Shown: one piece after another, positions 3,561-63,905 of the stretch
Numbering within the stretch: the stretch's first letter is position 1
How the letters are laid out: each line of letters begins with the position of its first letter
Assembly: GCA_018303325.1 (NCBI GenBank)
Contig: JAGVYH010000067.1
Location: 4,167-68,166 of the forward strand
Length of the DNA stretch: 64,000 bases
Direction: 5' to 3'
DNA from: Candidatus Woesearchaeota archaeon
GTDB lineage: Archaea > Nanobdellota > Nanobdellia > Woesearchaeales > DSVV01
The notes under the pieces: generated by a model
The model's input: the letters and a program-made list of their open reading frames with translations, nothing else
Told to the model about the DNA's origin: nothing
Databases searched by the model: none
Made by a program: the position numbers and the translations under genes

Positions 3561-3645
3561 AGTAATAACCTTTTGTGACTATTTAATATCCTTTATTGTC
3601 TGTTGTTTTTTTATTATCTGTTGTTTTATTATTTTTTAGTATTTA

Positions 3646-3765
3646 TAAAGAGCTTTGAATAACCATCTTTTTATTTGATTTTCAAAGCGGCTCTATTAAA
3701 GGTTTTGACTATTTTATAAGTTATTCAAAACCTTCAATAAGTTATTCAAAACCTTCTATAATTTA
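3646..3765 (+). repeat. Repeat family C, copy C1: two-hairpin element of ~100 nt with the 3' half partly duplicated
   Basis: AGAGCTTTGAATAAC...TTTTCAAAGCGGCTCT forms hairpin 1 and AAGGTTTTGACTATTTTATAAGTTATTCAAAACCTT forms hairpin 2. It is near-identical to copies at 7642, 25136 and 54870 and lies between L6 and L32e. Confidence 0.7.
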
Positions 3766-3814
3766 TTTATCGTTTACATGATAAATATTAAATTGATATT
3801 TGTTATTTATCCTT

Positions 3815-7615: not shown

Positions 7616-7641
7616 CTTTGAATTTATTTTGTTTTTTTGAT

Positions 7642-7742
7642 TATAGAGAGCTTTGAAAAACTCTTTTTTATGATATTTTTCAAAGCAGTTCTATTAAGGA
7701 TTTTGACTATTTGGATAGGTTATTCAAAACCCTCTATATTAA
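7642..7742 (+). repeat. Repeat family C, copy C2
   Basis: TATAGAGAGCTTTGAAAAAC...TTTTCAAAGCAGTTCTATTAAGGATTTTGACTATTT...TTATTCAAAACCCTCTATATT, between S17 and L14. Confidence 0.7.
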
Positions 7743-7754
7743 TTGATTCATGAT

Positions 7755-8078
7755 TCATATTTTTTTTACAACGACAAAATTCTTCGTCTTGCTCAATTTT
7801 TTAGTTTCCATTATTTGAACGTAATCGCCAATCTTGACACACAAGCATAATGGATTATGAGCCCATACTCTTGTTCTTCTTTTTTCTGATCTTTCGTATT
7901 TTGGAACAAATACTCTTCTTTCCCATTCAACAAGAGCATTTTTCTGGAATGTAATTTTTACAACTTTTCCTGTAAAACTCCTGCCTCTGACATTAATTTG
8001 TCCATGAAATGGGCATTTTTTATCATTGCACATTTCCTTTGGAGCAGGAATATCAATTCCTATATTTTTTGCGTTCAT
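7755..8078 (-). CDS. rps17: 30S ribosomal protein S17 (uS17)
   Basis: CNDKKCPFHGQINVRGRSFTGKVV. Confidence 0.9.
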   Translation of the reverse strand: MNAKNIGIDIPAPKEMCNDKKCPFHGQINVRGRSFTGKVVKITFQKNALVEWERRVFVPKYERSEKRRTRVWAHNPLCLCVKIGDYVQIMETKKLSKTKNFVVVKKI

Positions 8079-15524: not shown

Positions 15525-17195
15525 TTGAGAAAAGCTCAAAGTGCTGCAGGAGCAGCAGGATTAGTTGCATTACTAGCTGTTTTTATTGTACTATATATGT
15601 TATTATTGCCGCCGCAGGAAAGGGCAAATTTGCTTGGTGAACAATCTACAACAGGTACAGGCAATGGCGCAAACCAAAACTTGCCATCCGGCGCATTTAC
15701 TATTAATAAGACTGCTTTAACAGCTTCTCCTGGAAGAATTGAATATCTTAAATTCAGCTCTTACGATCATCCTTTACCTGCTGTAAATTTATACACGACA
15801 ACAAGCGCAAAAATATTGGCTAAGGAAGAGTCGTTATATATTAAGAATGGTATCTTTGATTTTCTGTCGCGAAACGTAACATTTAAAGTTGCAGATTTAG
15901 AATACACTGACAATGTTTTGTTATCAGCAAATACTGAAAAAGCACAGGGTAGATTAAGGATTTATTTAAACAATGTTGTTATTTATGACGGCGACGCAAA
16001 TCCTCTGCCAGTGATAAATATAGACAAAGAGTTTCTCCAGGCAATGAACACTATTTTGTTTGAAGTCAGCCCTGTTGGCTGGAAATTCTGGACAACAAAT
16101 GAGTTCACTCTGACAAAATTTCAGGTAACAGCAAATGTGATGGATGTAAGCGAACAAACAAGCAAGACATCATTTATCGTAACAGACACTGAGAAATTTA
16201 ATTTAGAAAAAGCCGCATTAAGATTTTTCCCTGACTGCAATCCAAGTGACGTCGGTAAATTAAAAATTTATTTTAATAACCAAAATATATATTCCTCTAT
16301 ACCTGACTGCTCGCAGTTAAACCAGCTTGATTTGTCACCTGATTTAATGTCGAGCGGCACTAATGATGTAACCTTCAAAACAGATAAAGGATATTATACT
16401 GTCTCACAGCTAAATGTCCACACTGAATTGAAAAAACAAACATATCCAGTATATTATTTTGAATTGGATGAAAGATTGTTTGTTGGCGAAGAAGAAGACA
16501 CAAATGCATGTGGAGAGGTTGACGGCGTCTGTCCTGCTAATTGCGATGAAGATCTTGACAGAGATTGCTGTTTTGAAACAGGCAACAAATACTGGTGCGA
16601 TGTTGTGCCAAATGAAGAAGGCGACAGATGCATCGCAGTTGTAAGCAAAGATGTTTGTGGACGATGTTTAACTGGGTATGAAGACAGCACTAATAATGCT
16701 CCTGATACATGTAAAAGCCTTTGTGGTGATGATAAAGACAATAAATGTCCTGTTGGCTGCAGTAAGAATTATGATAAAGATTGCTGTTTTGCAGACAATA
16801 CTGACAATTATTGGTGTGATAATGTTCCAATCTATGGCATAGATCAGGTATGCAAACATTCTCTGACACAGTCACAATGTAAAGATTGCGCAGGAAAATA
16901 TAAAACAAAAACAGGCGAAAGTTATAGTTGTGAAGATGAAGAAGAAACAGATATTAAAACACTAAGAGATGATTTTGAGGTGTTTATTATGTTTAGGTTC
17001 CTTGACGATAAAGAGCATAAGGCAGCAAATATTTATGTCAACGGCCACAAATTTTATCTTGACACTTACAAAGGCGAATATAAGAAAGCTGTAAGCAATT
17101 ATATTGGGCCTGGAAGCAATGCAGTCAAGATTGAGCCTGACATAAGCACATTGGACATTATAGAGCTAAAAATAGAAGTGCAACCAAAAAAGTAA
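15525..17195 (+). CDS. Secreted or surface Cys-rich protein with an archaeal pilin-like (class III) signal peptide; TTG start
   Basis: N-terminus (M)RKAQSAAGAAGLVALLAVFIVLYMLL. SD GAGGTGA lies 9 nt upstream of TTG. Two internal copies of the Cys module CPxxC..D.D.DCCF....YWCD.VP. Confidence 0.7.
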   Translation: MRKAQSAAGAAGLVALLAVFIVLYMLLLPPQERANLLGEQSTTGTGNGANQNLPSGAFTINKTALTASPGRIEYLKFSSYDHPLPAVNLYTTTSAKILAKEESLYIKNGIFDFLSRNVTFKVADLEYTDNVLLSANTEKAQGRLRIYLNNVVIYDGDANPLPVINIDKEFLQAMNTILFEVSPVGWKFWTTNEFTLTKFQVTANVMDVSEQTSKTSFIVTDTEKFNLEKAALRFFPDCNPSDVGKLKIYFNNQNIYSSIPDCSQLNQLDLSPDLMSSGTNDVTFKTDKGYYTVSQLNVHTELKKQTYPVYYFELDERLFVGEEEDTNACGEVDGVCPANCDEDLDRDCCFETGNKYWCDVVPNEEGDRCIAVVSKDVCGRCLTGYEDSTNNAPDTCKSLCGDDKDNKCPVGCSKNYDKDCCFADNTDNYWCDNVPIYGIDQVCKHSLTQSQCKDCAGKYKTKTGESYSCEDEEETDIKTLRDDFEVFIMFRFLDDKEHKAANIYVNGHKFYLDTYKGEYKKAVSNYIGPGSNAVKIEPDISTLDIIELKIEVQPKK

Positions 17196-19172: not shown

Positions 19173-19419
19173 AATAAATGTAAGTTAAGGTCATTAATAA
19201 ATATTTACTTTGTGGTTTCATGTTATGCTCCAAAATAAATTGCTTATCATCGTGAAAAGATATATAAACTATAATCGAATACATCTATTGCGCGCGATGA
19301 GATTGTGAACACCATGAGAGCGAAAGCAATGATCGACGGAAGTAACTTTCGAGCGCGCAACTTATATCTTAACTTTTTGGTTTGTTTAGTTGGTTGCATG
19401 TTTCTTAGCTTTTTTCTTG

Positions 19420-19680
19420 TTCTCGTCATGTTTTCTGCCCACACCCTGTTTGTGGGACGCAGTCCACAGTCACATGAATAAAAATGTAAGAAGGTTTGAA
19501 GGTCAGATGGTTTGATGGTAACGACTGATTTCCGTCGTTCCATTCGTAGTACCTTCAGACCATCAAACCATATTACCATCTTACCTTTTTTAGTGAACGA
19601 GTTGGACATGCCAGGAACGAAACAAACAAGTAGAATATAAAAATAATTATAGGTAGGGTAGCTGCGTCCATAAACGAAAA
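19420..19680 (+). repeat. Repeat family A, copy A1 (TIR-bounded MITE-like element with a ~50-bp central hairpin)
   Basis: 5' box GTTTGTGGGACGCAGTCCACAGTCACATGAA at 19449. Central hairpin gtaagaaggtttgaaggtcagatggtttgatggtaacgac...gtcgttccattcgtagtaccttcagaccatcaaaccat. 3' box GTGAACGAGTTGGACATGCCAGGAAC at 19593..19617. Inverted 5' box ...GCTGCGTCCATAAAC at 19661. Confidence 0.75.
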
Positions 19681-19772
19681 AAACAGACACATTTCAAAAA
19701 CATTTAAATAGTATAACCTACTAAGGACTAAACTAAGAGTAATAAATAACATCATAAAAAGAGGTTATATTA

Positions 19773-21298: not shown

Positions 21299-21334
21299 AA
21301 CAGATTAAAAGTGTAAATTTTTCTTAATATTTTT

Positions 21335-21400
21335 CTTCTGCTCTCAATCCGTTTGTGGGACGCAGTCCACAGTCTTATGAAAAATTAATTTTTTTTGAGC
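21335..21400 (+). repeat. Repeat family A, truncated copy A2 (5' box only)
   Basis: CTCTCAATCCGTTTGTGGGACGCAGTCCACAGTCTTATGAAAAATTA with no 3' box. Confidence 0.6.
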
Positions 21401-25091: not shown

Positions 25092-25135
25092 GTTGAAGTT
25101 AATTGTTCATATCTATTTATGAATTTAAATCAGTA

Positions 25136-25235
25136 AATAGAGAACTTTGAAAAACTTTATAAAAATGGGTTTTTCAAAGAGCTCTATTAAGGGTTTTGAC
25201 TATTTTAATAAGTTATTCAAAACCCTCAATAGTAT
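25136..25235 (+). repeat. Repeat family C, copy C3
   Basis: ATAGAGAACTTTGAAAAAC...TTTTCAAAGAGCTCTATTAAGGGTTTTGACTATTTTAATAAGTTATTCAAAACCCTCAATAG, between TyrRS and SDR. Confidence 0.7.
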
Positions 25236-25237
25236 AT

Positions 25238-26317
25238 TTATCTTGAAACATTAAATTCTTTTATCTGCTCTGCTAATTTTGTGGCTTTTTTGCTTTGATT
25301 CAATTTGTTTCTTACTGGCTCAAGCAATTGGTTAAGATGGCTTGCAACAGCCTGTTTCAGGTCAGCAGGATGAAGCTCGCCGTTGACAAATTTCTGTTCT
25401 AATTCTTCATAATTGCAAAATTCTAAATTCCCGCCCCATTTTGCAGGCCTTTCAATAACAAAATTATCAAATTTACTGAAAATAATATATTTGCAGTATT
25501 CAAGGATTGGGTTTTCAAATGTCTGTTTTTCCGGACAGTAAGCTTTAGATATTTTTCGTTTTATATCTTCGGCATTATCATTCATGAATATTGCGCTGTC
25601 TGGCTTAGACTTGGACATTTTCATTGCCATCATTCTTTCTTCCTGAGAAACATCTTGTCCTGGTGGCTGCAAAAGACCTTGAAGCATGTGATGGTTTACG
25701 ACAACAGGTTTCCAGAATCCTAATTTTGACCCAATTTCTCGTGCAAGAACATTAACCTTTCTCTGATCCATACCTAATTGAGTTATATCAGCGCCAATTT
25801 CAAATATATCAGCGCATTGCATGCAAGGATAAAATATTTGTGATGCCTGCAGAGCATCTTTCTCGCTTCTTCCCATTATTTGAGAACATCTAACTATTCT
25901 ATTAACAGTAGAATTTCTTGCTATTTGCATAACTGTTTTCCAGTATGTGCCATTATTGATTAAATCTGTGCTTCTCATGAACTTAACATTTTCTAAATCC
26001 ATATCGCATGCTTTCCACACTTCTATAAGATAATCGCCGACAATATTGATTTTCTCTAAATCTCCGCCTAACTTGTTATTAGCCCAGCCATGCCAATCAG
26101 CAGCTAGCATAACAAATTTAACCCCTGCCTTGGTCATTTTGTTAATATTAATAGCTCTCAATAAACCTTGAGCGATGTGAATATTAGTTCCTGAAGGCTC
26201 AAACCCGTCATAAGCAACAGGATGCTTCTTCTTTTCAAAAAGCTCTCTTAGCTCTTCCTCTGTAAGAATCTCTTCTCCGACTTCTTTTACTAGCTTAATT
26301 TGTTCTTCTGTTTTCAT
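25238..26317 (-). CDS. tyrS: Tyrosyl-tRNA synthetase (archaeal type) with a degenerate HIGH motif
   Basis: Collinear with archaeal TyrRS: GFEPSG, ADWHGW matching ADLHAY, a KMSKSKPDSAIFMND KMSKS loop, and C-terminal GGNLEFCNYEELEQKF..GELHPADLK. The HIGH position reads NIHIAQG. Confidence 0.7.
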   Translation of the reverse strand: MKTEEQIKLVKEVGEEILTEEELRELFEKKKHPVAYDGFEPSGTNIHIAQGLLRAININKMTKAGVKFVMLAADWHGWANNKLGGDLEKINIVGDYLIEVWKACDMDLENVKFMRSTDLINNGTYWKTVMQIARNSTVNRIVRCSQIMGRSEKDALQASQIFYPCMQCADIFEIGADITQLGMDQRKVNVLAREIGSKLGFWKPVVVNHHMLQGLLQPPGQDVSQEERMMAMKMSKSKPDSAIFMNDNAEDIKRKISKAYCPEKQTFENPILEYCKYIIFSKFDNFVIERPAKWGGNLEFCNYEELEQKFVNGELHPADLKQAVASHLNQLLEPVRNKLNQSKKATKLAEQIKEFNVSR

Positions 26318-28301: not shown

Positions 28302-28389
28302 GTGTTTATATTTTATTTTTAGTATATTTCTATTTGTTTTGTATAATTTTTTAAAATTTCATGTTTTGTTTAGCTGATTAATATCTTTT

Positions 28390-28575
28390 TCTCGCTCACA
28401 ATTCAGTTTACCGCTCTCAATCCGTTTGTGGGACGCAGTCCACCGTCTCATGAAAAATTATTAGTTATTCGTTCTTCGCTATTCGTCATTCGTAACTAAG
28501 AACGAAAAACGAAGAAAGAATAACCGTTTTATCATAGTGAACGGGTTGGACATGCCGGGAACTAAAATAAAAAAA
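28390..28575 (+). repeat. Repeat family A, copy A3
   Basis: CACAATTCAGTTTACCGCTCTCAATCCGTTTGTGGGACGCAGTCCACCGTCTCATGAA, then central hairpin gttattcgttcttcg...cgaagaaagaataac, then GTGAACGGGTTGGACATGCCGGGAACTAAAA. Confidence 0.75.
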
Positions 28576-28778
28576 ATGCCGACAATCTGCAACCTGAAGG
28601 TTGCAGTATTTAATGTTGGCATTTTTAAATTCTTGACGAGCACTGCTCGTCAAGTCTAATAATGCCGATGAAGTCGGCATTATTTTTATAGAAAAGACCC
28701 ATCTGTGACCTTAAGGTCACAGTATTCGCTTTTCCAAATAAGATAAATTTAAAAAGATTCAATAATATAAATGAATTA

Positions 28779-35493: not shown

Positions 35494-38739
<3,246 letters not shown>

Positions 38740-41299: not shown

Positions 41300-41402
41300 A
41301 TAATATACTAAACCATAATTAGTTTTTCTAACTAATTATGGTTTGTATATACAAAACGGAAATGAAAGTTCGGAATTTCATTTCCGTTTTAGTATATTTA
41401 AT
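41300..41402 (+). repeat. Repeat family D, copy D4: two perfect hairpins inside ATATACAAAA...TTTTAGTATAT arms
   Basis: AAACCATAATTAG-ttttt-CTAACTAATTATGGTTT, then gtatatacaaaaCGGAAATGAAAgttcggaaTTTCATTTCCGttttagtatattta. Confidence 0.6.
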
Positions 41403-42480
41403 TCAAAAACACTATTTTCATATTTCTAAATTCTGTAGTTAATATAGATTGCGCTTTTTTAGTAACCTCGCCGGTTGTTATAAACAAAACAGGCAGATTT
41501 TTTTTCTGGCCTTTGACATAAGCGCTCGCTAAGTCTCCTTCATTGCACTTTTTCTTTGTTTTTATTTTGCACAAATATTCTATTTTGCCAACAGGCGAAG
41601 GCACTTCTGCCATACAATCAATTTCTTTATTTTTTTTAATAATCTCGACATCACCAAAAGTTATATTATTCTCATTAAAATATAGTTTTAATTTTAAAAA
41701 TAGTTCATCTTTAATAGAGTCATGTTTAATATTGGTTTGTGGCTTGGTTAATGATTGTAATGATTGCTGCTCTTTAACTTCTTTAATATTATCTTGAATA
41801 AATGATTCTGAGATTCCAGAAATCCCTAAAGCAGATTGTTTTTTCTTAATTTTTTCTGTATCTTTTTCTCCTTTATCTTTCTCTTCATCAGTTATTGCCT
41901 TAATTGTTTCTTTCTCTGATTGATTAATTTCAGTAAGAGGATATTCTTTCAAGATTGTTTTTTGTATAATGAGAGGTTCTGCCTTTAAATCGGGTTTAAT
42001 CTCTTTTTGTAGTTCATCCTGTGGTTGTTTAAGCATTAGATGCTGCTGTATAAATGCAACGCATTCTTCCTGCGCCAATAAATACCAACCCCAAAATAAT
42101 TCAGTCGTATTGTCAACAGTAACCTGTAAAGGCCTTGCATAATCAGGGATATAACGCAGAGAAACTCTTAATAAGGGTGTTAATTCATTATCCTTCAATA
42201 CCTTTTTTTCTTTTAATAAGTTATAGGCTTTGATGTCTTTTTCATTTAAATGTTTATTAAGTTCCTGCAATCTTGCTTTTTGTTCAGGAAGATAATAAAA
42301 AGGGCTACCGCCAATCTTAACAGTTGTTATGAGAAGCTTTCCATTTGCAACAAGCTCTGATAATGTTGCACCCATCATAAATGTGTCTGAGCCAAAAGAT
42401 TTAACAAGATCTTTTGGGATAACCGGCCCTTTGGTTTTAATAAATTGTATAATTTTATCTTTGTCTATTGTTTGATACAT
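41398..42480 (-). CDS. Hypothetical protein: N-terminal winged-helix-like region plus C-terminal PD-(D/E)xK nuclease-like motif
   Basis: N-terminus KIIQFIKTKGPVIPKDLVKSF...LSELVANGKLL. C-terminus DVEII...EIDCMAEV...KIEYLCKIK. Assignment tentative. Confidence 0.35.
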   Translation of the reverse strand: MYQTIDKDKIIQFIKTKGPVIPKDLVKSFGSDTFMMGATLSELVANGKLLITTVKIGGSPFYYLPEQKARLQELNKHLNEKDIKAYNLLKEKKVLKDNELTPLLRVSLRYIPDYARPLQVTVDNTTELFWGWYLLAQEECVAFIQQHLMLKQPQDELQKEIKPDLKAEPLIIQKTILKEYPLTEINQSEKETIKAITDEEKDKGEKDTEKIKKKQSALGISGISESFIQDNIKEVKEQQSLQSLTKPQTNIKHDSIKDELFLKLKLYFNENNITFGDVEIIKKNKEIDCMAEVPSPVGKIEYLCKIKTKKKCNEGDLASAYVKGQKKNLPVLFITTGEVTKKAQSILTTEFRNMKIVFLN

Positions 42481-42627
42481 AGCTCGATGGGGTTAAAGAA
42501 TGTTTATATATTTATTGTAAATTTAATGGGGATGATTTATTCAATTCATCATGGTTTATAAGATTAGGCACTTGTTAAAGCAAGGATTTGTTAGCTGATT
42601 TCTTGTTTTTAAATCTCTTTTTCTTGT

Positions 42628-42880
42628 TCACAATCTTGTTTCTCGTTCTCAGCTGGTTTGTGGGACGAAGTCCACGATTACATGAAAAATTAAAAAAGGT
42701 GCTGGGTGCTAGGTGCTGGGTGCTAGTTACGATGAATTATCGCTGCTAGCACCTAGCACCTAGCACCCAGCACCTAGCACCTAGTTTTCATAGTGAACTA
42801 TTTGGACATGCCAGGAACTGAACAAAAAACTTAAATTAGTGAACAATGGCTGCGCCCCTGAACTAAAAAACAAAAGAAAA
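42628..42880 (+). repeat. Repeat family A, copy A4 (central hairpin is a 29-bp perfect GGTGCTGGGTGCTAGGTGCTGGGTGCTAG palindrome)
   Basis: CACAATCTTGTTTCTCGTTCTCAGCTGGTTTGTGGGACGAAGTCCACGATTACATGAA...GTGAACTATTTGGACATGCCAGGAACTGAAC...GGCTGCGCCCCTGAACTAAAAAACAAA. Confidence 0.75.
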
Positions 42881-51280: not shown

Positions 51281-51473
51281 CTTTAAATTTCCATAAGAAA
51301 CAGAGGTATATAAATATTATTGTAAACTAGTTAGGGACACACCCCTTGATTTCCTATGGAACTTGTGTAAATTTGGTTTAGTTTGTGAATTGTTTTGTAA
51401 TTTTGATGTGTTTAATCAAGAACCAACAGTCACCGCTGCGGCTTAGAAAAGTGGAAAGAGGAATTCTAAAATG

Positions 51474-51537
51474 AGCTTAAAGCATGATAAGCTTAAAGTA
51501 TGATGAGTTTAAAGTATGATAAGCTTAAAGCAGAGCA
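51474..51537. repeat. Four tandem 16-bp repeats, (G/A)AG(C/T)TTAAAG(C/T)ATGAT
   Basis: gagcttaaagcatgat aagcttaaagtatgat gagtttaaagtatgat aagcttaaagcagagc. Confidence 0.8.
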
Positions 51538-51603
51538 TCTTTATTTCTTCTTTCGAACTTCAAATTTTCCTTTTGACGCCAAATATATCTTTGTATTCTT
51601 ATA

Positions 51604-51735
51604 CTTCTTTCCTTCTTTCCTTCTTTCCTTCTTTCCTTCTTTCCTTCTTTCCTTCTTTCCTTCTTTCCTTCTTTCCTTCTTTCCTTCTTTCCTTCTTTCC
51701 TTTTTCCTTTCCTTTCCTTTCCTTTCCTTTCTTCA
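51604..51735. repeat. Polypyrimidine/polypurine microsatellite (CTTTCCTT)n followed by (CCTTT)n, a mirror repeat with H-DNA potential
   Basis: About 12 units of ctttcctt then cctttcctttcctttcc. The ORFs called here (FPSFLLSF... and KKERRKEG...) are translations of the repeat. Confidence 0.9.
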
Positions 51736-52214
51736 TATATTTTTCGTTAATTACAATCTGTGTATTAAACCTCGTGGTTTGCTGTGATTGGGTTGGCGAA
51801 TTTAAGGCTTTTTTTGATTTTATTCTCATTTTAACTTTGTTATTATTTTAAATATTATTTCATACAAAAATATTATGTTTTTGTATTATTTTGATATTAT
51901 ATATAATTTTTATTATTATCTTATTATATTATTATTATAACTCTTTATTTTCTATATTGAAATAAAATACTTATTATAAATATAAAATGTAAAATTATAA
52001 CAAAAAAGTAAAAGAGCAAACAAAAAAATTATTATAATATTATATTATTATTAATATCAAACATAATAAATATAATTAATAATAATCATCAATCATTAAT
52101 TGTAAATAATAAAAAGAAAATTATAAAAATAAATAATCAATTAAAATAAGTTATAATTGTTTATAATTTTGGTTGATGTTAAAGATTTCGATAAAAATAG
52201 TATAAACATATCTT

Positions 52215-52312
52215 AAATGGAATTAGTTTTCGAATAAATTAATTCCATTTAGTATATACAAAAGTCCTTGTTTTTATTCAAAAGCTAAGGACTTTTAGTA
52301 TATAATTTATAA
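52215..52312 (+). repeat. Repeat family D, copy D2 (two hairpins) at the edge of the putative origin
   Basis: AAATGGAATTAGTTTTCGAATAAATTAATTCCATTT, then agtatatacaaaagtccttgtttttattcaaaagctaaggacttttagtatataatttat. Confidence 0.65.
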
Positions 52313-52551
52313 GTAAAACCAGATACTATCAATACAAAAACATTAACAACACATTTTCCACACGCAATCAACGGGTCAGGGGCGCAACTTTAATGTTAAT
52401 CTATTACTTATTAATCATAAAAACCACATCTATTCGAAACATTTTTAAACTATAATATATCTAAAATAATAAAATACACTTAAAATGCATTTAATGTATA
52501 GTTAATATACTTAATTATTAAAATAGATTTTGAAAAAGAAGGTGATTAAAT

Positions 52552-54661: not shown

Positions 54662-54869
54662 AACAAATAAGATAAGATTCTTGTGGTCTGCTATAAATTC
54701 TTTTTCTTTTTGAACTTAAATGTTTTAATCATTGCTAATATGAGGCGAATACATAAATTTAACCATAAATTAAGCTTTTTTCCTCTTTTCCAGCCCAAAT
54801 TATTCATAAATTTTATAAATACGTTTAATTTAGTCTCTTTTTAATTAATAATTAATCTTTTAATTAATA

Positions 54870-54966
54870 ATAGAGAGCTTTGAATAACCTCTTTTATTTG
54901 ATTTTCAAAGCGGCTCTATTAAAGGTTTTGAGGATTTTTATAAATTATTCAAAACCTTCAATAATT
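54870..54966 (+). repeat. Repeat family C, copy C4, also carrying the likely histone promoter
   Basis: TAGAGAGCTTTGAATAACC...TTTTCAAAGCGGCTCTATTAAAGGTTTTGAGGATTTTTATAAATTATTCAAAACCTTCAATAATT. TTTTATAAA sits ~45 nt upstream of the histone ATG. SD GAGGTGG. Confidence 0.65.
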
Positions 54967-54977
54967 AATGATTTGAG

Positions 54978-55199
54978 GTGGTAATCATGGCAGGTAAAAG
55001 AATAATTCCTCTTGCTGCAATGGAAAAGATTATTAAACAGGCAGGCGGCGAAAGAGTATCAGATGGCGCAAAAGTAGCATTAAAAACAGTCCTTGAAGAA
55101 ATTGGCGAAGAGATTGCGATGAATGCAGTCAAACTGGCTGCCCATGCAGGAAGAAAAACAATAAAAGCAGGAGATGTTAAGTTAGCATCAAAAAGTTAA
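54978..55199 (+). CDS. Archaeal histone (HMf-like histone fold)
   Basis: MAGKRIIPLAAMEKIIKQAGGERVSDGAKVALKTVLEEIGEEIAMNAVKLAAHAGRKTIKAGDVKLA. Confidence 0.9.
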   Translation: MVIMAGKRIIPLAAMEKIIKQAGGERVSDGAKVALKTVLEEIGEEIAMNAVKLAAHAGRKTIKAGDVKLASKS

Positions 55200-55507: not shown

Positions 55508-55680
55508 CCACAATCAATCTAGTTTTCCGCTCTCAGCTCGTTTGTGGGCGAAGCCACACGTCTCATGAAATATTTTTAAAGTTTTTTTAATAGTTTTATC
55601 GAAAGAGCAATACCGTGTAAATAAACTAAAATATCATCATGAGACGTGGGACTGCGTCCCTAGTACTAAAAAACAAACGA
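55508..55680 (+). repeat. Repeat family A, copy A5 (near-perfect TIR of the dyad box)
   Basis: 5' end CGTTTGTGGGCGAAGCCACACGTCTCATGAAAT. 3' end TCATCATGAGACGTGGGACTGCGTCCCTAGTACTAAAAAACAAACG. The 3' end is the inverted complement of the canonical 5' box. Confidence 0.75.
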
Positions 55681-56622: not shown

Positions 56623-56684
56623 ATATTAAAGATAAGAAAGGTTATATATAAAGTTTTCATCATCTTTTTGGTGGGTTATTATTG

Positions 56685-56900
56685 TTCTCATCATGGTTTC
56701 TGCTCAAAACTTGTTTGTGGACAAAGTCACACATCACATGAATAAAAATGTAAGAAGGTTTGAAGGTCAGATTGTTTGATGGTAACGACTGATTTCCGTC
56801 GTTCCATTCGTAGTACCTTCAGACCATCAAACCATCTAACCTTCTTACCTTTCTTCGTGAACTAGTTGGACATGCCAGGAACGACTAAAAACAAAAAAAA
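56685..56900 (+). repeat. Repeat family A, copy A6 (same central hairpin as A1)
   Basis: CTGCTCAAAACTTGTTTGTGGACAAAGTCACACATCACATGAATAAAAATGTAAGAAGGTTTGAAGGTCAG...GTGAACTAGTTGGACATGCCAGGAACGACTAAAAAC. Confidence 0.75.
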
Positions 56901-56990
56901 TTAATTATATAATATTATCTTTCACAAAGTGCCTCTTTCACAAAAACTCGACAAAAACTTTATAAGCAAAACATAGTTTTATACTTACTT

Positions 56991-57563: not shown

Positions 57564-60500
57564 TCATATATCTTCTAAACTTTCTTCTATTCTAATTTCT
57601 TGAATTTTTTCTTGTTGTAATAGCTTTAACGAATAATTTCTGCTTGCTTGTTCAAATGTTTCAGTTACGTATGATGGTAAAAGCAGCGAAATGTGATCTT
57701 CTCGTATAAATCTTCTTTTTTGACTTCCTTTCTTGTCTATCTCCATCCAAACCACTAAAGAATCAATATCATGCCTATTTTTTTTACCTGCGCACCCATT
57801 TATAATACGGTGATACCTTGCAATTAATTCCATCCTGTCTAATCTTCTTTTATACTGTCTTAATCTAAATATTTCTTCAACTTCCGTTATACTAAAATAT
57901 CTTTTTCCATCGAACGCAACAAATTCTAACCTTCCTTTTTCGTCTTCAACAATTCTTTCAAGATTGGTTGTATTCATCCTTCTTTTTAAGTCTTCAATTA
58001 TCATATCTGTTTTTTTCGTATCGGTAAGTGGTTTAGGAGATTGTTCTTTCTTTGAATCCTCACTTGGCTTGTTACGACGTTCTGAATACAATGGTTGTGT
58101 TTTAGTTATAAATCTGTACACTTTTTCTATTGGAATCGGTTTAAACGAATAACCTCTCGCAACATCTTCAAATGGTTTATCTGCAATTCCTTTAAAAATA
58201 TCATCTATGCTTTCTTCCTTAATAAACCACCTTGCTCCCTTATACCTGCATTTTTGCACACCTTTCCCAACATATACTTTAAATGCCTTGCGTGTTGGTG
58301 CATTTCCCCCTTCACGAATTCTTCCCCACACTTTTTTTGCATATTTTAATTTGTCTTTGGGCCAGTTATAAACATCATATACTGCGGTCATTACAAAATA
58401 TCTTTCTCCATCTACTGCTAAAAATTCAAGCGTGCCTTTTTCACTTCTAACCTTTCTTTCTAAACCATCATAATTTAACCTCTCAAGATCAACATTTTCA
58501 TTATATGACCTTAATGTTTCAATTATTTCTTTAACATCAACCAATTCCTTTCTTCTTGAAGGATGTTGTAATTTTCTCAATGCCTCTGCTTCTATTTGCC
58601 TTATTCTTTCTCTGGTGACAGCAAAATCCTGCCCAACTTCTTCTAATGTATGATCATCCTCTTCACCTATTCCAAATCTCATTCTTAACACTTTTTCTTC
58701 TCGTGGGTGTAATGTTGCAAGAACTCTTGTTAGTTTCTCATGAAGATTTTTATCGCTTACAACCACATCAGGTTTTGGTGCTGTTTTATCTTCAATAAAA
58801 TCACCAAGCTCGTCTTTTCCATCTTCATTAATCTTTGTTTGCAACGAAATTGGCTCTTTTGCTACTTTTTGAATCTTCTTAACTTTCTCAACAGAAATTT
58901 CCATTTTTGCTGCAATCTCTTCTGAATTTGGTTCTCTTCCCAACTCCTGAACAAGATACCTTGTGGTTTTTACTAACTTATTTATTATTTCGATCATATG
59001 CACAGGAATTCTTATTGTCTTTCCCTGGTCAGCTATTGCTCTTGTAATTGCCTGCCTTATCCACCATGTCGCGTATGTTGAAAATTTATACCCTCGTTCC
59101 CATTCATACTTTTCAACTGATTTCATTAACCCAATATTACCTTCTTGCACCAAATCTAAGAATTGTAACCCTCTGTTTGTATATCTCTTTGCGATGGAAA
59201 CAACTAATCTTAAGTTTGCAGTCGTCAAATCTTCTTTAGTTTTTTCATACCTCCTTCTTTCTCTTTCTATCGCAGAGACCCGTGCGCCAATATCCAAAGC
59301 TGCTATTCCTGTTTCTTCTTCGTATTTTTCGATTCTTGTGCAACTTTCATTATATTCGCTATTATCTCTTGTTACCTTTCTTCCTTCATGCGTTTCTTTA
59401 TACCTTTCTTCATATTTCTCTTTCTGCTTCACTGTGTTTGAATAATCTCTAACATATTTAAGAACCTCTTCCTCAAATTGCTGACGCCAATTATAATATA
59501 TTTTTCTCACAGATGCAAAAAATAAGATATCCTTTTGACTAATATCTTCGAATGAGGTATAAACTGTGAACCTATCATCTGGCGCATTTTCCTCTTTTTT
59601 TACTCCCTTCTTATCCTTTTCCTCTTTAAACCTAGAATAAATATCTGCAAATAACTTGAAAATAGCAGATTTATTGTTTAATGCATCTTTATCTTCCCCT
59701 ATATCTTCAGTCTCTTCAATATCTTCATCCTCGTCAATTCTGTGGGGTGAATAAACAGCACATGGTCGTATTTCACCATCATTTATTTTCTTTTCAGCTT
59801 CTTTTAATTTATTGAGAGAGTAATTTAATCCATACAATAATTTAGCATAATTTAACAAGTACATATCTCTTTTCTTTCCAAGTTCTATCTCTTTATCGCG
59901 GGTTAATAAATCAATATCCCCCATCTGCCTAAAATATGTCCTCACCATATCTTTTCCAGCGCCTTTTTCTAAGTCAGCATCCTTTTTTGTTATTCCCTCT
60001 TCGCTTCTTTCTTCTCTTTCTGGTTCTATATGTTCTTCACTTGCAAACTCTTGCTCATCTTCAGGTAGAGTTTTATCTATTCGTGATTCCAAAAATTTCA
60101 CATATTTTTCGATTTTTCTTTCTTTTGCAGACAATGCACGAGCATCTTGTTCTGCTTTACTTACAACCTCTCCTTTTTTTTCTTTAGCATCTTGTTTTCT
60201 TAAAGGAAGAATATGCACAGTAGCGCCTTTTGTTGTCGTGTCTGCTTTTTCTTGTCTGTGTTGTTCTGCTCTTTCAACACTTTCACAATACGCTTTAAAT
60301 AAATCATCTAATAATTCTTTGCTTGCATTAAAAGATGTTTTGTATAATGATGTATTAATGGCATTAAGCGCCCCAAGAACTTGTTTATAATCTAAAAAAG
60401 CACCTTCGCCAAATATTTTCAGCATTAGCCAATTTTTCTCAACCCAGACATAAGAGGGGTCGTCTCCTTTCCATTCACTTTCAACTTTTGCTATAAACTC

Positions 60501-60893
60501 TTTAAAATATTCCCTCAAACTAATCATAGCAATGCTTAAATCTTTGTTTCTGTCATTTCCAACTTTACATGCCTTAAAATATACTTGTTTAGAAATTAAT
60601 TCCTTTTCCCCGCCGACAACACCAAAACTTTTAACAATATCATCTATGCTGAAAAACCCAAACTCTCCAACTTTTTCTTTTTCAATTGCCTGTCCAAGTT
60701 TCATTCCCTGTGTACTGTAAAGTGTTTTAAACAAACCAGGATATACTGCATTAACAATATCTATATCATCAAAACTAATGCTATGGAGAGCAGGAATTCT
60801 TTGATAGAAAACATAATCTTGTTTCAGCTTTTCAGCTGTTAACGACAGAGACCTATCTTTACTTTTCAAAAAGTATGAGATTACGTCGCCCAT
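57564..60893 (-). CDS. 1109-aa multidomain protein containing a complete bacterial-type primary sigma-70 (RpoD-like regions 1.2, 2, 3, 4; approx. nt 58550..59950), plus unique N- and C-terminal extensions with a repeated motif
   Basis: Seen in translation: [27 protein letters not shown] (region 1.2). [82 protein letters not shown] (region 2). [14 protein letters not shown]...[27 protein letters not shown] (region 3). [48 protein letters not shown] (region 4). These match E. coli RpoD nearly residue-for-residue in the conserved blocks. The C-terminal extension has two copies of LEF(L/V)A(V/F)DG(E/K)RYF. Confidence 0.8.
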
Positions 60894-61025
60894 GGTAAAA
60901 TAATGCTTATAATAAGTTTATAAATCTACCTAATTTTACCCCGCACATTTTGGCGATTGGGTAATTCATTTGATTGTATTTTTGAAATGGATTCAAGAAT
61001 ACAATTTTTAGGTTTAATACCATAC

Positions 61026-63296
61026 TTAACTTTGTGTCTCTTTAAGGAATGAGGTTAAATTTACTAATTCTTCTGCTCGAATACCTTTTGGTGAATCATC
61101 ACCTAATTCAGGTATAGTTGCTTCTAATTTCAATTTTCCGTCGCTAACTAAAAGTTCACATGCAGCAGTGATATCCCCCATAGAATACCCTAATCTGCTT
61201 GGCAAATCATCATAAGGGATTAAAGGGTTTGCGTCTTGTGGTAATGTAAGTTGTGCACTATCTACTTCTGCTGCAGTAATGGCAGCAGCTTCTAAACCAC
61301 TTTCAGCTTCTGCAGTATCCTCTACACTCTCACTATCTACTGATATTTGTCGTGCTGCATCCCTTTTGCTTTTAGACACAGTATATAATCCATATTTTTT
61401 CATCTCACTAGTCAAGCTTTCGACATCAACACCAACTAAAGAAATTGCACTTAATGAATATCCTTTAATTAAATCGCTAAATTGGTCGTCAACATATTTT
61501 GGCAGGGCAGGCTGTACATAATCTTCCCTTACAAAAGCAACTGTTTTTCCTTGAGATGATTGAAGGCCTTCCACTTTTAAGTACGTCCCTTCCGGCAGTT
61601 TTCCAGTACTTTGCAATATACATATATTTGCAGGATAAGAACTACTTGGAACTTTCTGACCATCATATTCTCTTTCACTGTACACCTTTCTGACTTCTTT
61701 CGCTTTGAAATATCTTTGTCCATTAATTGCCAAGAAATATAATGTTTCTGCGCCTTCAACAGTTTGTTCTAACCCTTTTGCGCTTAACATTTCTCCTAAT
61801 TCAACAGGAATTTCTTGTGGTGATCTAGTCGTTTCTGGTCGCGCTTTTCTTTGTACTGCTGGTAGTGCTCTTACTCTTTCTGTTCTCTCGATTCCTTCTG
61901 CTTTTTTTGGTGCTTCTGCTTTCTCTACTTTTGCAGCAGAACTATTATCAACATTTCGTCCTACTAATGGCTGTGGCCTATATCCGCACACACTGGTACC
62001 ATTATCTGCTAATTTTACTGCTTTATATTTTCCATCATATTCCATTGATTTACTTTTTCTTTTAGAATCTACACTTTCTCTTACTTTTTCTGGTAGAAGT
62101 CCAACTAGTGCATCTTCTCTATAAACTTTTGTTGAATTACCTTTTTCTCTTTTTACTGCCTTAACTTTACCTTGTTGCTCTAATTCTAACAATATTTGGT
62201 TAGGGATTAGATTATAACCTAACTTAGAGTAATCAACACCAAGAAACTTTGCTGATTCTGGCGCTGAATAATAACGTTGGCCTCTTATTTCATAATAAAT
62301 TGCGGATTCACTCGAAGGTTCACTTGTACTTTTTGCGCCCTCATCTGCTTCAGATGTTCTCTCAACTTTTTTAACTACTTTGTCTATACTTCTTTCCTCA
62401 CCAACAACGTGATAATTATCTTGAGATGCTGGTTTTGGAGTAAATTCACTAAAAGTGTCCTTAAGAGTATGATGATACTTCTTAGGTAAAATAGTTTCAA
62501 ATATATCAAAGGAATATACTCCGCTCCTTTTTCCTTTGTAAATAACATCCTTTTCTTTTCCATCTCTTTCTAGCTGTGTTCTTTCTTTGTCATCAACACA
62601 CCTGCCGATATATTGATGCAACGCACTTATTGATGTCTTAAACATATCTGCTATTTCGCTAATGCGATAATACTGCTCGCCCCCAATCTCAAAACATAAA
62701 ACTTCTTTCCCCTTCTTTGCTTTGCCTAATACCTTTCCAGTATCAGTTCTCTGTGGTTGCGTGTGTGTTGGCTCAGTTCTTTGTTCAACTCTTCCGAGCT
62801 TTCTTACTTTTTCTATAACTTCGTTTCCAGCAATAAGTTTGAGTCTAGTATTTAAAAATCCAATATATTCTGTTACACGATTTAATGCTACATCCATAGC
62901 AGCTTTTTTTACAGGATCTTTGTCCGATACTTCGCAACTATTACAAAGATATAATATTTCAACTTCTTGCAATCTTTCTTTTGCTAATTTTAATCTCTCT
63001 ATCACCTTGCCTTTTGCATATGTTTCAGCATTTTTTTCAAGAGAGCCAGCAAAATCAATCAAATTAGAATACTTTAAAACAACAAAATTATAATCTGCTA
63101 CTACTTCTAACTCTATATCCGCAATTGCAAATTCTTGTGTTACCTGAACATCATGAACCTTTTTTGAAGCGCTGTCTATTTTGTCTAAAACTGTTAAGAC
63201 TACCTGCTCGTTTACTTTTGCATTAAGAACATCTTGACTTACACCGAATAATCTATTTGCTTCGCTTAACATCTCTTCAAGTTTCATTGCTACCAC
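61026..63296 (-). CDS. 756-aa protein with three copies of the same (I/L)xGxxY(Y/F) repeat motif found in the sigma-fusion protein. Composition departs from the host (Ala/Glu/Val/Ser-rich, locally higher GC).
   Basis: EVLCFEIGGEQYYRISEIADMF, AIYYEIRGQRYYSAPESAKFLG, TLYFLAINGQRYFKAKEVRKVY. Co-oriented with the 57564 gene, 132 nt upstream of it. Confidence 0.6.
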   Translation of the reverse strand: MVAMKLEEMLSEANRLFGVSQDVLNAKVNEQVVLTVLDKIDSASKKVHDVQVTQEFAIADIELEVVADYNFVVLKYSNLIDFAGSLEKNAETYAKGKVIERLKLAKERLQEVEILYLCNSCEVSDKDPVKKAAMDVALNRVTEYIGFLNTRLKLIAGNEVIEKVRKLGRVEQRTEPTHTQPQRTDTGKVLGKAKKGKEVLCFEIGGEQYYRISEIADMFKTSISALHQYIGRCVDDKERTQLERDGKEKDVIYKGKRSGVYSFDIFETILPKKYHHTLKDTFSEFTPKPASQDNYHVVGEERSIDKVVKKVERTSEADEGAKSTSEPSSESAIYYEIRGQRYYSAPESAKFLGVDYSKLGYNLIPNQILLELEQQGKVKAVKREKGNSTKVYREDALVGLLPEKVRESVDSKRKSKSMEYDGKYKAVKLADNGTSVCGYRPQPLVGRNVDNSSAAKVEKAEAPKKAEGIERTERVRALPAVQRKARPETTRSPQEIPVELGEMLSAKGLEQTVEGAETLYFLAINGQRYFKAKEVRKVYSEREYDGQKVPSSSYPANICILQSTGKLPEGTYLKVEGLQSSQGKTVAFVREDYVQPALPKYVDDQFSDLIKGYSLSAISLVGVDVESLTSEMKKYGLYTVSKSKRDAARQISVDSESVEDTAEAESGLEAAAITAAEVDSAQLTLPQDANPLIPYDDLPSRLGYSMGDITAACELLVSDGKLKLEATIPELGDDSPKGIRAEELVNLTSFLKETQS

Positions 63297-63430: not shown

Positions 63431-63695
63431 CAAATTAAGCAACTACTAAGCCTGCCTCAAATTTGTCAGCTTTGCTATTGTATAGCAAATGCACTAAATT
63501 TTCGTAATTAGTCGTTGCATTTGCTATGTTGAATGAACTGAACTATATTGATAAGTAGTTTTAGTTCATTGGCTAAATCTCGTAAGACTATAGAGGAAGC
63601 GAAAACACTTGAATAAGTCATTTGTTCTTTATAACCTGCTTATTCTGCGGGTTTTCGCAAAAGCTGACTGACAGGCTTAGTAGTTGCCAAATTAA
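63431..63695 (+). mobile_element. MITE (family B, copy B2): 16-bp TIR plus 8-bp TSD
   Basis: TIR is GCAACTACTAAGCCTG (63439..63454) pairing with CAGGCTTAGTAGTTGC (63672..63687). Direct repeat CAAATTAA flanks it at 63431..63438 and 63688..63695. Conserved core TTTGTCAGCTTTGCTAT...ATCTCGTAAGACTATAGAGGAAGCGAAAAC...GTTTTCGCAAAAGCTGACTGACAGG. Confidence 0.8.
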
Positions 63696-63697
63696 TA

Positions 63698-63905
63698 TTT
63701 TCTTGCTCTCAGCTCGTTTGTGGGACGCAGTCCACCGTCACATGAAACTGTTTGAAAGCTCGAAAGTTATCTGTGTAAAGCGCACTTTCAAGCTTTCTAA
63801 CTTTCAAACCTTCTTACCTTTCTTCATAAACGTGTCCAATCAGGTAAGAAATAAAAAAATAAATATGTAGTAAGACGTCTGGCTTCGCCTAGGAACTAAA
63901 TAAAT
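63698..63905 (+). repeat. Repeat family A, copy A7, abutting MITE B2
   Basis: TTCTTGCTCTCAGCTCGTTTGTGGGACGCAGTCCACCGTCACATGAAACTGTTTGAAAGCTCGAAAG...GACGTCTGGCTTCGCCTAGGAACTAAATAAAT. Confidence 0.7.

Follow-up and report, generated by a model that had tools for sequence, protein, structure and literature searches.

In a 64,000-nucleotide stretch of Candidatus Woesearchaeota DNA (contig JAGVYH010000067.1, positions 4,167 to 68,166; the whole of this stretch is called the window below), we analysed two neighbouring genes, here called S and P. Gene S (57564-60893, minus strand) encodes a sigma-70 protein fused to further domains, and gene P (61026-63296, minus strand) encodes a protein carrying copies of a domain that is also found in S. 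We hold with moderate confidence that the two genes form a vertically inherited, lineage-restricted and fast-evolving sigma-plus-partner pair of a small Woesearchaeota clade, coupled by a shared and probably DNA-binding domain. The open reading frames (ORFs) and their adjacency and common orientation were confirmed as the original prediction had described them, with a gap of 132 nt between the genes. The sigma-70 regions of S were likewise confirmed. The closest homologues of both proteins came from a Candidatus Woesearchaeota genome.

The 1,109 amino acids of S comprise a private N-terminal domain, a charged linker, RpoD-like sigma-70 regions 1.2 to 4, and a C-terminal extension of 320 amino acids with two copies of the shared domain. 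Through Pfam comparison, region 1.2 was placed at residues 315-341 (PF00140, 28.9 bits against a cut-off of 22), followed in order by region 2 at 558-625 (E = 2.8e-23), region 3 at 637-708 (E = 2.3e-23) and region 4 at 724-777 (E = 8.7e-20). The RpoD_Cterm model TIGR02393 passed its cut-off (358.4 against 354 bits), and the full-length RpoD equivalogs stayed below theirs (NF004208 with 488 against 555 bits, NF006666 with 382 against 572 bits). Residues 546-790 (58524-59258, minus strand) cover regions 2, 3 and 4, where the surface for core binding and the determinants of -10 and -35 recognition lie, and share 68-74 % identity with primary sigma factors from Myxococcota, Oligoflexia and their relatives. 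Against solved RpoD chains, S matched with E = 3e-105; regions 2.1-2.4 and 4.2 were near-identical, and the -10 and -35 recognition motifs were essentially unchanged. Judged by its sequence, S is an RpoD-derived sigma-70 protein with regions 1.2 to 4 almost intact, and it is this sigma core, not P, that is of bacterial origin. With its recognition motifs conserved, S may bind bacterial core polymerase and direct initiation at promoters of the -35/-10 type.

In a reference set of 107 close bacterial relatives, which is biased toward kin of the query, 169 positions were near-invariant (at least 98 % conserved). The four archaeal S proteins known to us retain 131-150 of them; the 11-22 % substituted are mostly conservative changes, and two in the region 3.2 finger, E685Q/S and P687K/R, are common to all four. 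S thus resembles bacterial RpoD in its core, and differs from it in being archaeal, in standing behind an archaeal TATA box, in these substitutions, in falling short of the full-length RpoD cut-offs, and in both termini. No match to region 1.1 (PF03979), which most of the listed bacterial relatives carry, was found in S by the Pfam scan. Its place is occupied by residues 1-215 (60249-60893, minus strand), a private domain kept in four lineages at 42-54 % identity to the window copy, for which we found no Pfam match and no PDB match by profile or single-sequence search. Region 1.1 autoinhibits DNA binding by free sigma-70, and because it has been lost, S could be able to bind DNA without core polymerase. 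The S protein was detected with identical sequence on 16 contigs from several metagenomes.

Gene P encodes 756 amino acids when read from a GTG codon, and 753 from the ATG at 63287. The ATG is the more likely start, since gene callers on other contigs give 753 amino acids and a GGTGGT Shine-Dalgarno-like motif precedes it; this motif was found before the ATG in three lineages. The protein begins with a helical domain, continues with three shared-domain copies set apart by low-complexity linkers, and closes with a small C-terminal domain. One linker, at residues 631-691 (61224-61406, minus strand), is acidic and Ala/Glu-rich, holds the run 'gcagcagcttc...' behind the gene's less AT-rich appearance, and was poorly conserved when three P orthologues were aligned. 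The C-terminal domain that follows it (residues 692-756; 61029-61223, minus strand) is conserved in four lineages. No Pfam or NCBIfam family was found in P at E <= 0.01, which includes any recognisable anti-sigma domain, and there was no sequence relative in PDB. Comparison by hhalign among the P N-terminal, P C-terminal, S N-terminal and shared domains revealed no relationships.

The two genes had been predicted to share a private module of about 22 amino acids. The shared motif is real and its family is private, but the true unit is a domain of about 100-125 amino acids, of which the 22-residue motif makes up the N-terminal hairpin and helix. Its long form, of about 120 amino acids, occurs twice in S and once in P. 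Copy S1 (S residues 812-930; 58104-58460, minus strand) was recognised by a hidden Markov model (HMM) with E = 1.5e-46 and is strongly basic (isoelectric point, pI, 9.8; net charge +11); copy S2 (S residues 979-1102; 57588-57959, minus strand) gave E = 1.5e-43 with a pI of 9.4; and copy C (P residues 510-630; 61407-61769, minus strand) gave E = 3.9e-41 and is acidic, with a pI of 5.0. These three are clearly homologous: the long-form profile matched the long copies with E = 1e-41 to 1e-47, and blastp of P against S aligned copy C to the two S copies with E = 2e-8 and 2.6e-8.

The other two copies in P have a shorter form. Copy A (P residues 193-296; 62409-62720, minus strand) is supported by AlphaFold and hhalign, and copy B (P residues 326-425; 62022-62321, minus strand) by hhalign. 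The homology between the two is clear (hhalign 95.7 %, E = 8.5e-9), and their motif is shifted by one residue relative to the long form. Between short and long forms the hhalign signal was weak (P = 4.8e-4 for A and 6.5e-3 for B), with alignments collinear from end to end, and a plain HMM built from the long copies did not separate the short copies from shuffled sequence. With a short-form HMM, the long copies in P and S were the two best non-self matches among 334 six-frame ORFs of the window, aligned over nearly the full length, and the AlphaFold models of long and short copies show an equal order of secondary-structure elements. We therefore accept the predicted counts of three copies in P and two in S, five in all, with the link between the two forms resting on weak statistics. 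The six-frame ORF search found no copy in any other ORF of the window. The net charges of the P copies are 0, +4 and -3.

The original prediction had further taken P for a compositionally foreign, less AT-rich gene, acquired horizontally and later welded to a resident sigma gene, with flanking repeats marking the inserted unit. The guanine-plus-cytosine (GC) content of P is indeed slightly high, 0.357 against a gene mean of 0.337 (standard deviation 0.027 in 49 ORFs, so 0.75 standard deviations above), in a window of 32.6 % GC overall. In length-corrected codon-usage distance P ranked second of 48 genes with z = 3.5. But S ranked first, with z = 3.8, so it shares the deviation, and the excess of both is small. 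At third codon positions the GC content of P is only 0.198 against a mean of 0.269, among the lowest in the window, and S is also below average there, so neither gene is GC-richer at synonymous sites. The excess of P is confined to first codon positions (0.509, the highest in the window) and reflects Ala, Val, Glu and Gly codons, an amino-acid effect; these codons are concentrated in the poorly conserved low-complexity linkers, such as residues 631-691. P and S use native codons.

Distribution and divergence likewise argue against a foreign P. The pair is known from four Woesearchaeota lineages: the window organism, a groundwater Woesearchaeota genome (L001) and two Logan contigs (L002 and L006). 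P lies immediately upstream of S in all four, so the expected co-occurrence was borne out, and EndA follows S wherever the contig continues. The number of shared domains varies: three lineages have two of them in S, and L006 has one; P carries three in the window and in L001 and five in L002, and in L006 is cut by the contig end. In the searches made, the family was confined to these lineages. Only two P homologues were found among 5.8 billion clustered proteins, and the long-domain profile recovered from 1.84 billion representative proteins only P/S homologues plus a few low-complexity chance matches. Species-representative genomes returned only the known sister genome, JGI metagenome contigs returned none, and no relative was found in 2.9 million viral contigs, for a scan of which the alignment of short copies varied too much.

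Comparing the window with L001, protein identity is 52 % for P and 59.5 % for S, against 93-98 % for the flanking genes, and the ratio of nonsynonymous to synonymous divergence (dN/dS) is 0.48 and 0.33 against 0.025-0.065. Even sigma regions 2-4 are merely 74-78 % identical between lineages. At synonymous sites the picture is different: 4-fold-site divergence in conserved codons reaches 0.39 in P and 0.44 in S, with 0.32 in the flanking genes, 2-fold-site divergence is 0.19-0.20 for all alike, and the comparison with L002 agrees. This approximate equality indicates that P and S co-diverged with their neighbours while their proteins evolved about ten times faster. In the tree of long copies, S1, S2 and the long copy of P form three orthologous clades, so the duplications are older than the lineage split. 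A recent separate acquisition of P is thereby refuted, and an old local duplication into S is still compatible. Considering also the native synonymous sites and the stable synteny, we regard the acquisition of P as a foreign gene as largely refuted and of very low probability. For P, neither atypical synonymous-site composition nor patchy presence nor mobility genes, as would mark a genomic island, were seen.

Two further explanations of the divergence pattern were considered and rejected: concerted evolution or gene conversion between P and S copies by the module tree, and an older allele brought in by recombination, overall, by synonymous divergence that matches the flanks. We also observed that two sub-regions, S residues 1-215 (60249-60893) and P residues 431-756 (61029-62006), show a 4-fold-site divergence from L001, in conserved codons, of 0.62-0.63, on small counts of 27-49 sites; P residues 1-180 have 0.18 and the flanks 0.32. 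The two sub-regions may hint at mosaic recombination inside the cassette.

The repeats are present on both sides of the pair, as would be taken in favour of an inserted unit, but they do not bracket it. A dispersed palindromic copy at 56675-56909 lies between RNase Z and EndA, not beside S, so that EndA would fall within the supposed bracket. Further dispersed intergenic copies of families D1, D2, D5, D6 and D18 (63434-63831) lie upstream of P and are not cassette-specific. The repeat family, which is dispersed through the whole genome, was found at no fewer than seven intergenic sites of the window (19404-19645, 21307-21390, 28380-28580, 42612-42836, 55520-55660, 56675-56909 and 63672-63831), and in the sister genome L001 related copies occupy both the EndA-RNase Z spacer and the P-S spacer. 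Copies span about 80-230 nt; their dyad core GTTTGTGGGACGCAGTCCAC is conserved, and 8-nt units make up their long inverted arms. For both strands of the copy at 56675-56909 a long hairpin is predicted (z = -4.7 and -4.0). No Rfam match was found for the repeat, and it could be an element like a miniature inverted-repeat transposable element, or a regulatory site.

Just upstream of gene starts, at 3625-3771, 7623-7758, 25116-25251 and 54848-54983, we observed another family of repeats, about 90-150 nt long. It contains TATA-like CTCTATTAA boxes, and one copy precedes the histone gene at 54978. This family may serve several genes as a common promoter of the strong archaeal type or as a common regulatory cassette.

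The signals upstream of S are archaeal. A TATA box, TTTATAAA, is located at 60917-60924 on the minus strand, 23 nt upstream of the S start codon, and TTTATAA(A/G) precedes the S ATG by 22-23 nt in all four lineages, though the rest of the spacer differs. Given the standard geometry of archaeal promoters, this spacing points to a promoter of its own for S and to a leaderless mRNA made by the archaeal machinery, as a prediction from the promoter motif.

As to the nature of the shared domain, the AlphaFold model of copy A (predicted local distance difference test, pLDDT, 91.5; predicted template modelling score, pTM, 0.82) has the order beta-beta-alpha-alpha-alpha-beta-beta-alpha-alpha-beta. The model of copy S2 is poorer (pLDDT 74, pTM 0.71), and a Foldseek search of PDB with the long-copy model of pLDDT 74 gave nothing usable. 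With copy A the best PDB match was non-significant (E = 0.15), and most of the top 50 were winged helix-turn-helix (HTH) DNA binders, among them ArsR/HlyU, MarR, Pukovnik Xis, BldC, SoxR and TubR. Sub-threshold HTH matches were also found on the short copies, with MerR (E = 0.0017), MerR_1 (0.0045), HTH_17 (0.14) and the PADLOC model mad1 (3e-4), of which the MerR and mad1 matches fall at P residues of about 206-230; MerR on copy A reached 12.6 bits against a gathering cut-off of 28.2. The domain resembles HTH_17 of the MerR and excisionase type in these matches, which cover the first helices of the short copies, and in the PDB neighbours Pukovnik Xis, BldC and SoxR; it differs in an additional N-terminal beta-hairpin, an additional helix and C-terminal elements, with a template modelling (TM) score of about 0.3 and scores below cut-offs. 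Scans of P and of 15 single domain copies with Pfam, NCBIfam, PHROGs and PADLOC gave nothing beyond such sub-threshold HTH matches. Searches of PDB by sequence with the shared domain and with P, by profile and single sequence, found no match. We conclude that the domain is a new sequence family with a predicted winged-helix-like fold, and it is probably nucleic-acid-binding.

A relationship to Bro-N and KilA-N domains, which had been suggested for the repeat module, was seen as a hint at the level of fold and not in sequence profiles. Against the predicted viral structures of BFVD, Foldseek gave probabilities up to 0.98 at non-significant E = 0.007-0.2, with TM scores of 0.4-0.52 over about 95 aligned columns, nearly the whole domain. 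The best of these matches carry annotations such as regulatory protein, KilA-N, Bro-N and Ant antirepressor, and one of them, VHML ORF48, was confirmed as a Rha protein by Pfam Phage_pRha. The N-terminal domains of these phage proteins are of similar size, and the shared domain begins, as they do, with hydrophobic strand - G - x - x - aromatic - aromatic - x - x - x - acidic - hydrophobic. Unlike them, it forms tandem arrays and is joined to a sigma factor, and it has no profile match: no Bro-N, KilA-N or Phage_pRha profile was listed for 15 domain copies in Pfam at E up to 10, a PHROGs scan of P and the domain copies gave nothing annotated above threshold, and hhalign of the short-copy alignment against the confirmed Rha domain gave a probability of 0.5 %. 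On the fold comparison the domain may be a remote relative of the viral Rha/Bro-N/KilA-N group, and it is not assigned to that group here.

These viral fold neighbours, together with the rapid protein evolution, would also suit an origin of the pair in a viral or plasmid genome where a sigma gene stood alongside Bro-N/KilA-N/Rha-type regulators, now domesticated in the chromosome with a possible role in defence or in conflict between elements. MzaA of the MZA anti-phage system is, like S, a long protein of the sigma-70 family, and its model matches S residues 279-789 (the PADLOC model 545-794). But the MzaA match reached only 374 bits against a cut-off of 800, RpoD models scored higher, and near the pair only S itself gave a defence-family match, below cut-off. 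No integrase, capsid or other mobile-element gene was seen beside the pair in the window and the fetched upstream flank, where the identified neighbours are housekeeping genes; no relative was found in the viral contigs and no match in PHROGs; and the location is stable in four lineages. A domesticated viral or mobile-element origin is thus improbable in our view.

In the sigma-plus-partner pair as we read it, region 1.1 of S is replaced by the private 215-residue domain, and S has gained one or two basic copies of the shared domain at its C-terminus, most likely by local duplication from the neighbouring gene. P combines 3-5 copies of the same domain family with its private N- and C-terminal domains. 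As a putative nucleic-acid-binding, or other target-binding, module, the shared domain may direct P and S to common sites or bring the two proteins together. P would then be a candidate partner of the sigma fusion, or its regulator, and might compete with it, tether it or work in the manner of an anti-sigma factor. The logic would be that of ECF41/ECF42-type sigma factors of the extracytoplasmic function (ECF) class and of adjacent anti-sigma genes, where an extra domain or a neighbour gene controls sigma activity. S differs in being RpoD-like and not ECF, because regions 1.2 and 3 are present, and neither its extension nor P has similarity to known extensions or anti-sigma domains.

The acidic character of copy C and the basic character of the S copies suit a purely protein-interacting domain as well. 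In such a scheme the shared domain would be a dimerisation module, and P would sequester S by heterotypic pairing as an anti-sigma-like paralogous decoy, which fits the charge complementarity and the finding of Castelle et al. 2021 (PMC8204110) of no classical anti-sigma factor in these genomes. The fold neighbours are almost all DNA-binding domains, which argues the other way, and we consider this explanation unlikely.

The high conservation of the sigma core, including its -10 and -35 recognition motifs, leads to another explanation, namely that S is made by the archaeon and acts on the bacterial RNA polymerase of a physically attached host or partner, where its intact core-binding and -10/-35 determinants would capture the core enzyme and the C-terminal domains and P would redirect transcription. 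No bacterial polymerase gene was identified in the partly annotated window, rapid protein evolution and variation in copy number are typical of host-interaction genes, and Castelle et al. 2021 (PMC8204110) found neither an explanation for these sigma factors nor an anti-sigma factor. On the other side, no signal peptide, no membrane segment and no secretion signal could be recognised in P or S. To our knowledge, the DPANN archaea in culture live with hosts that are themselves archaea, and no bacterial host is known for Woesearchaeota. The substituted near-invariant positions, among them the shared changes in the region 3.2 finger, and the location amid core replication and RNA-processing genes also count against such an effector, to which we give little credence. 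We might speculate still more broadly that an ultrasmall archaeon keeps a functionally constrained and complete bacterial primary sigma factor, expressed from a TATA box, without region 1.1 and tethered to private DNA-binding modules and a partner, either to hijack the RNA polymerase of a bacterial partner or co-opted onto the archaeal machinery; we hold this to be a long shot.

Several observations weigh against the sigma-plus-partner pair as we read it. Every fold and family match for the shared domain is below significance (Foldseek E of at least 0.007), and the acidic copy C is a poor fit to a DNA-binding role. We know of no bacterial core polymerase in archaea to which a sigma factor could bind, and a scan of the locus for sigma-70-type promoters found 31, against 27 ± 5 in shuffled sequences, which is no excess. 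The known lineages are four only, two of them on short contigs, and the dN/dS values of 0.33-0.48 could mean relaxed constraint and not an arms race.

The host is archaeal, as the window encodes both subunits of PolD, Cdc6/Orc1, FEN1, a PAN-type ATPase, Hjc, histone and EndA, besides RNase Z. On the S side of the pair lie EndA, which adjoins S, and RNase Z; to the right of the window, upstream of P, we found TBP, an intein-containing MCM and a protein of the oligonucleotide/oligosaccharide-binding (OB) fold, so the pair sits amid core information-processing genes. The MCM helicase gene (L007, 2793-6218, beyond the window's right end) is two genes upstream of P, with TBP just before it, and its intein bears a LAGLIDADG endonuclease domain. 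ARAGORN found no tRNA gene in the 64 kb, and no Rfam family reached its gathering score.

Adjoining the Cdc6/Orc1 gene, an extremely AT-rich intergenic stretch (51470-52500) was observed, with GC content down to 0.15. In this stretch a 16-nt repeat runs for 3.7 copies (51474-51532), CTTCTTTC recurs about 15 times (51604-51729), and there are tandem arrays of A and T only; the stretch is probably the replication origin. Three large ORFs of 1081, 556 and 360 amino acids (35494-38739, minus strand; 15525-17195, plus strand; 41398-42480, minus strand) have no Pfam family at E <= 1e-4 and do not contain the P/S domain. A further ORF of 147 amino acids with a GTG start (19247-19690, minus strand) overlaps a copy of the dispersed repeat, has a third-position GC content of 0.39 against a mean of 0.27, and is probably not a real gene.

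Sigma-70 genes in this phylum have been published. Castelle et al. 2021 (PMC8204110) described them as 'particularly prevalent in Woesearchaeota' (family fam00359); mis-binning was ruled out, no anti-sigma factors were found and the mechanism was left open. S is the same kind of gene from the same phylum, likened by kind and not by family assignment, and likewise occurs in archaeal context on many independent contigs. The passage of that paper on these genes gives no gene architecture. Added here are the extensions at both ends of S, the conserved neighbour that has the C-terminal domain in common with it, and the difference in evolutionary rate; our search found no later literature on Woesearchaeota sigma-70. 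The fused architecture of S, its partner gene and this difference in rate appear to be new.

A layout analogous to that of the pair was seen in gut-metagenome bacterial contigs (L003, 7174-11683; also L004 and L005). They encode an unrelated sigma-70 protein of 942 amino acids, with a long C-terminal extension that looks repetitive by eye, and an upstream gene of 562-779 amino acids that overlaps the sigma gene and contains about six repeats of roughly 75 amino acids. This arrangement of a sigma factor with a repeat-protein neighbour has no sequence relation to the archaeal shared domain.

Because P and S are native, co-inherited and fast-evolving, P offers a first candidate for a partner of the sigma factors that are so far unexplained in these DPANN archaea. 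For DPANN sigma-70, no function or regulator is known (PMC8204110), and the locus supplies a handle in the form of a conserved neighbour, a domain map and a predicted archaeal reading of S. The tenfold excess in rate over the neighbouring genes suggests that the pair may take part in an interaction under conflict, and could bear on how these symbionts deal with their hosts.

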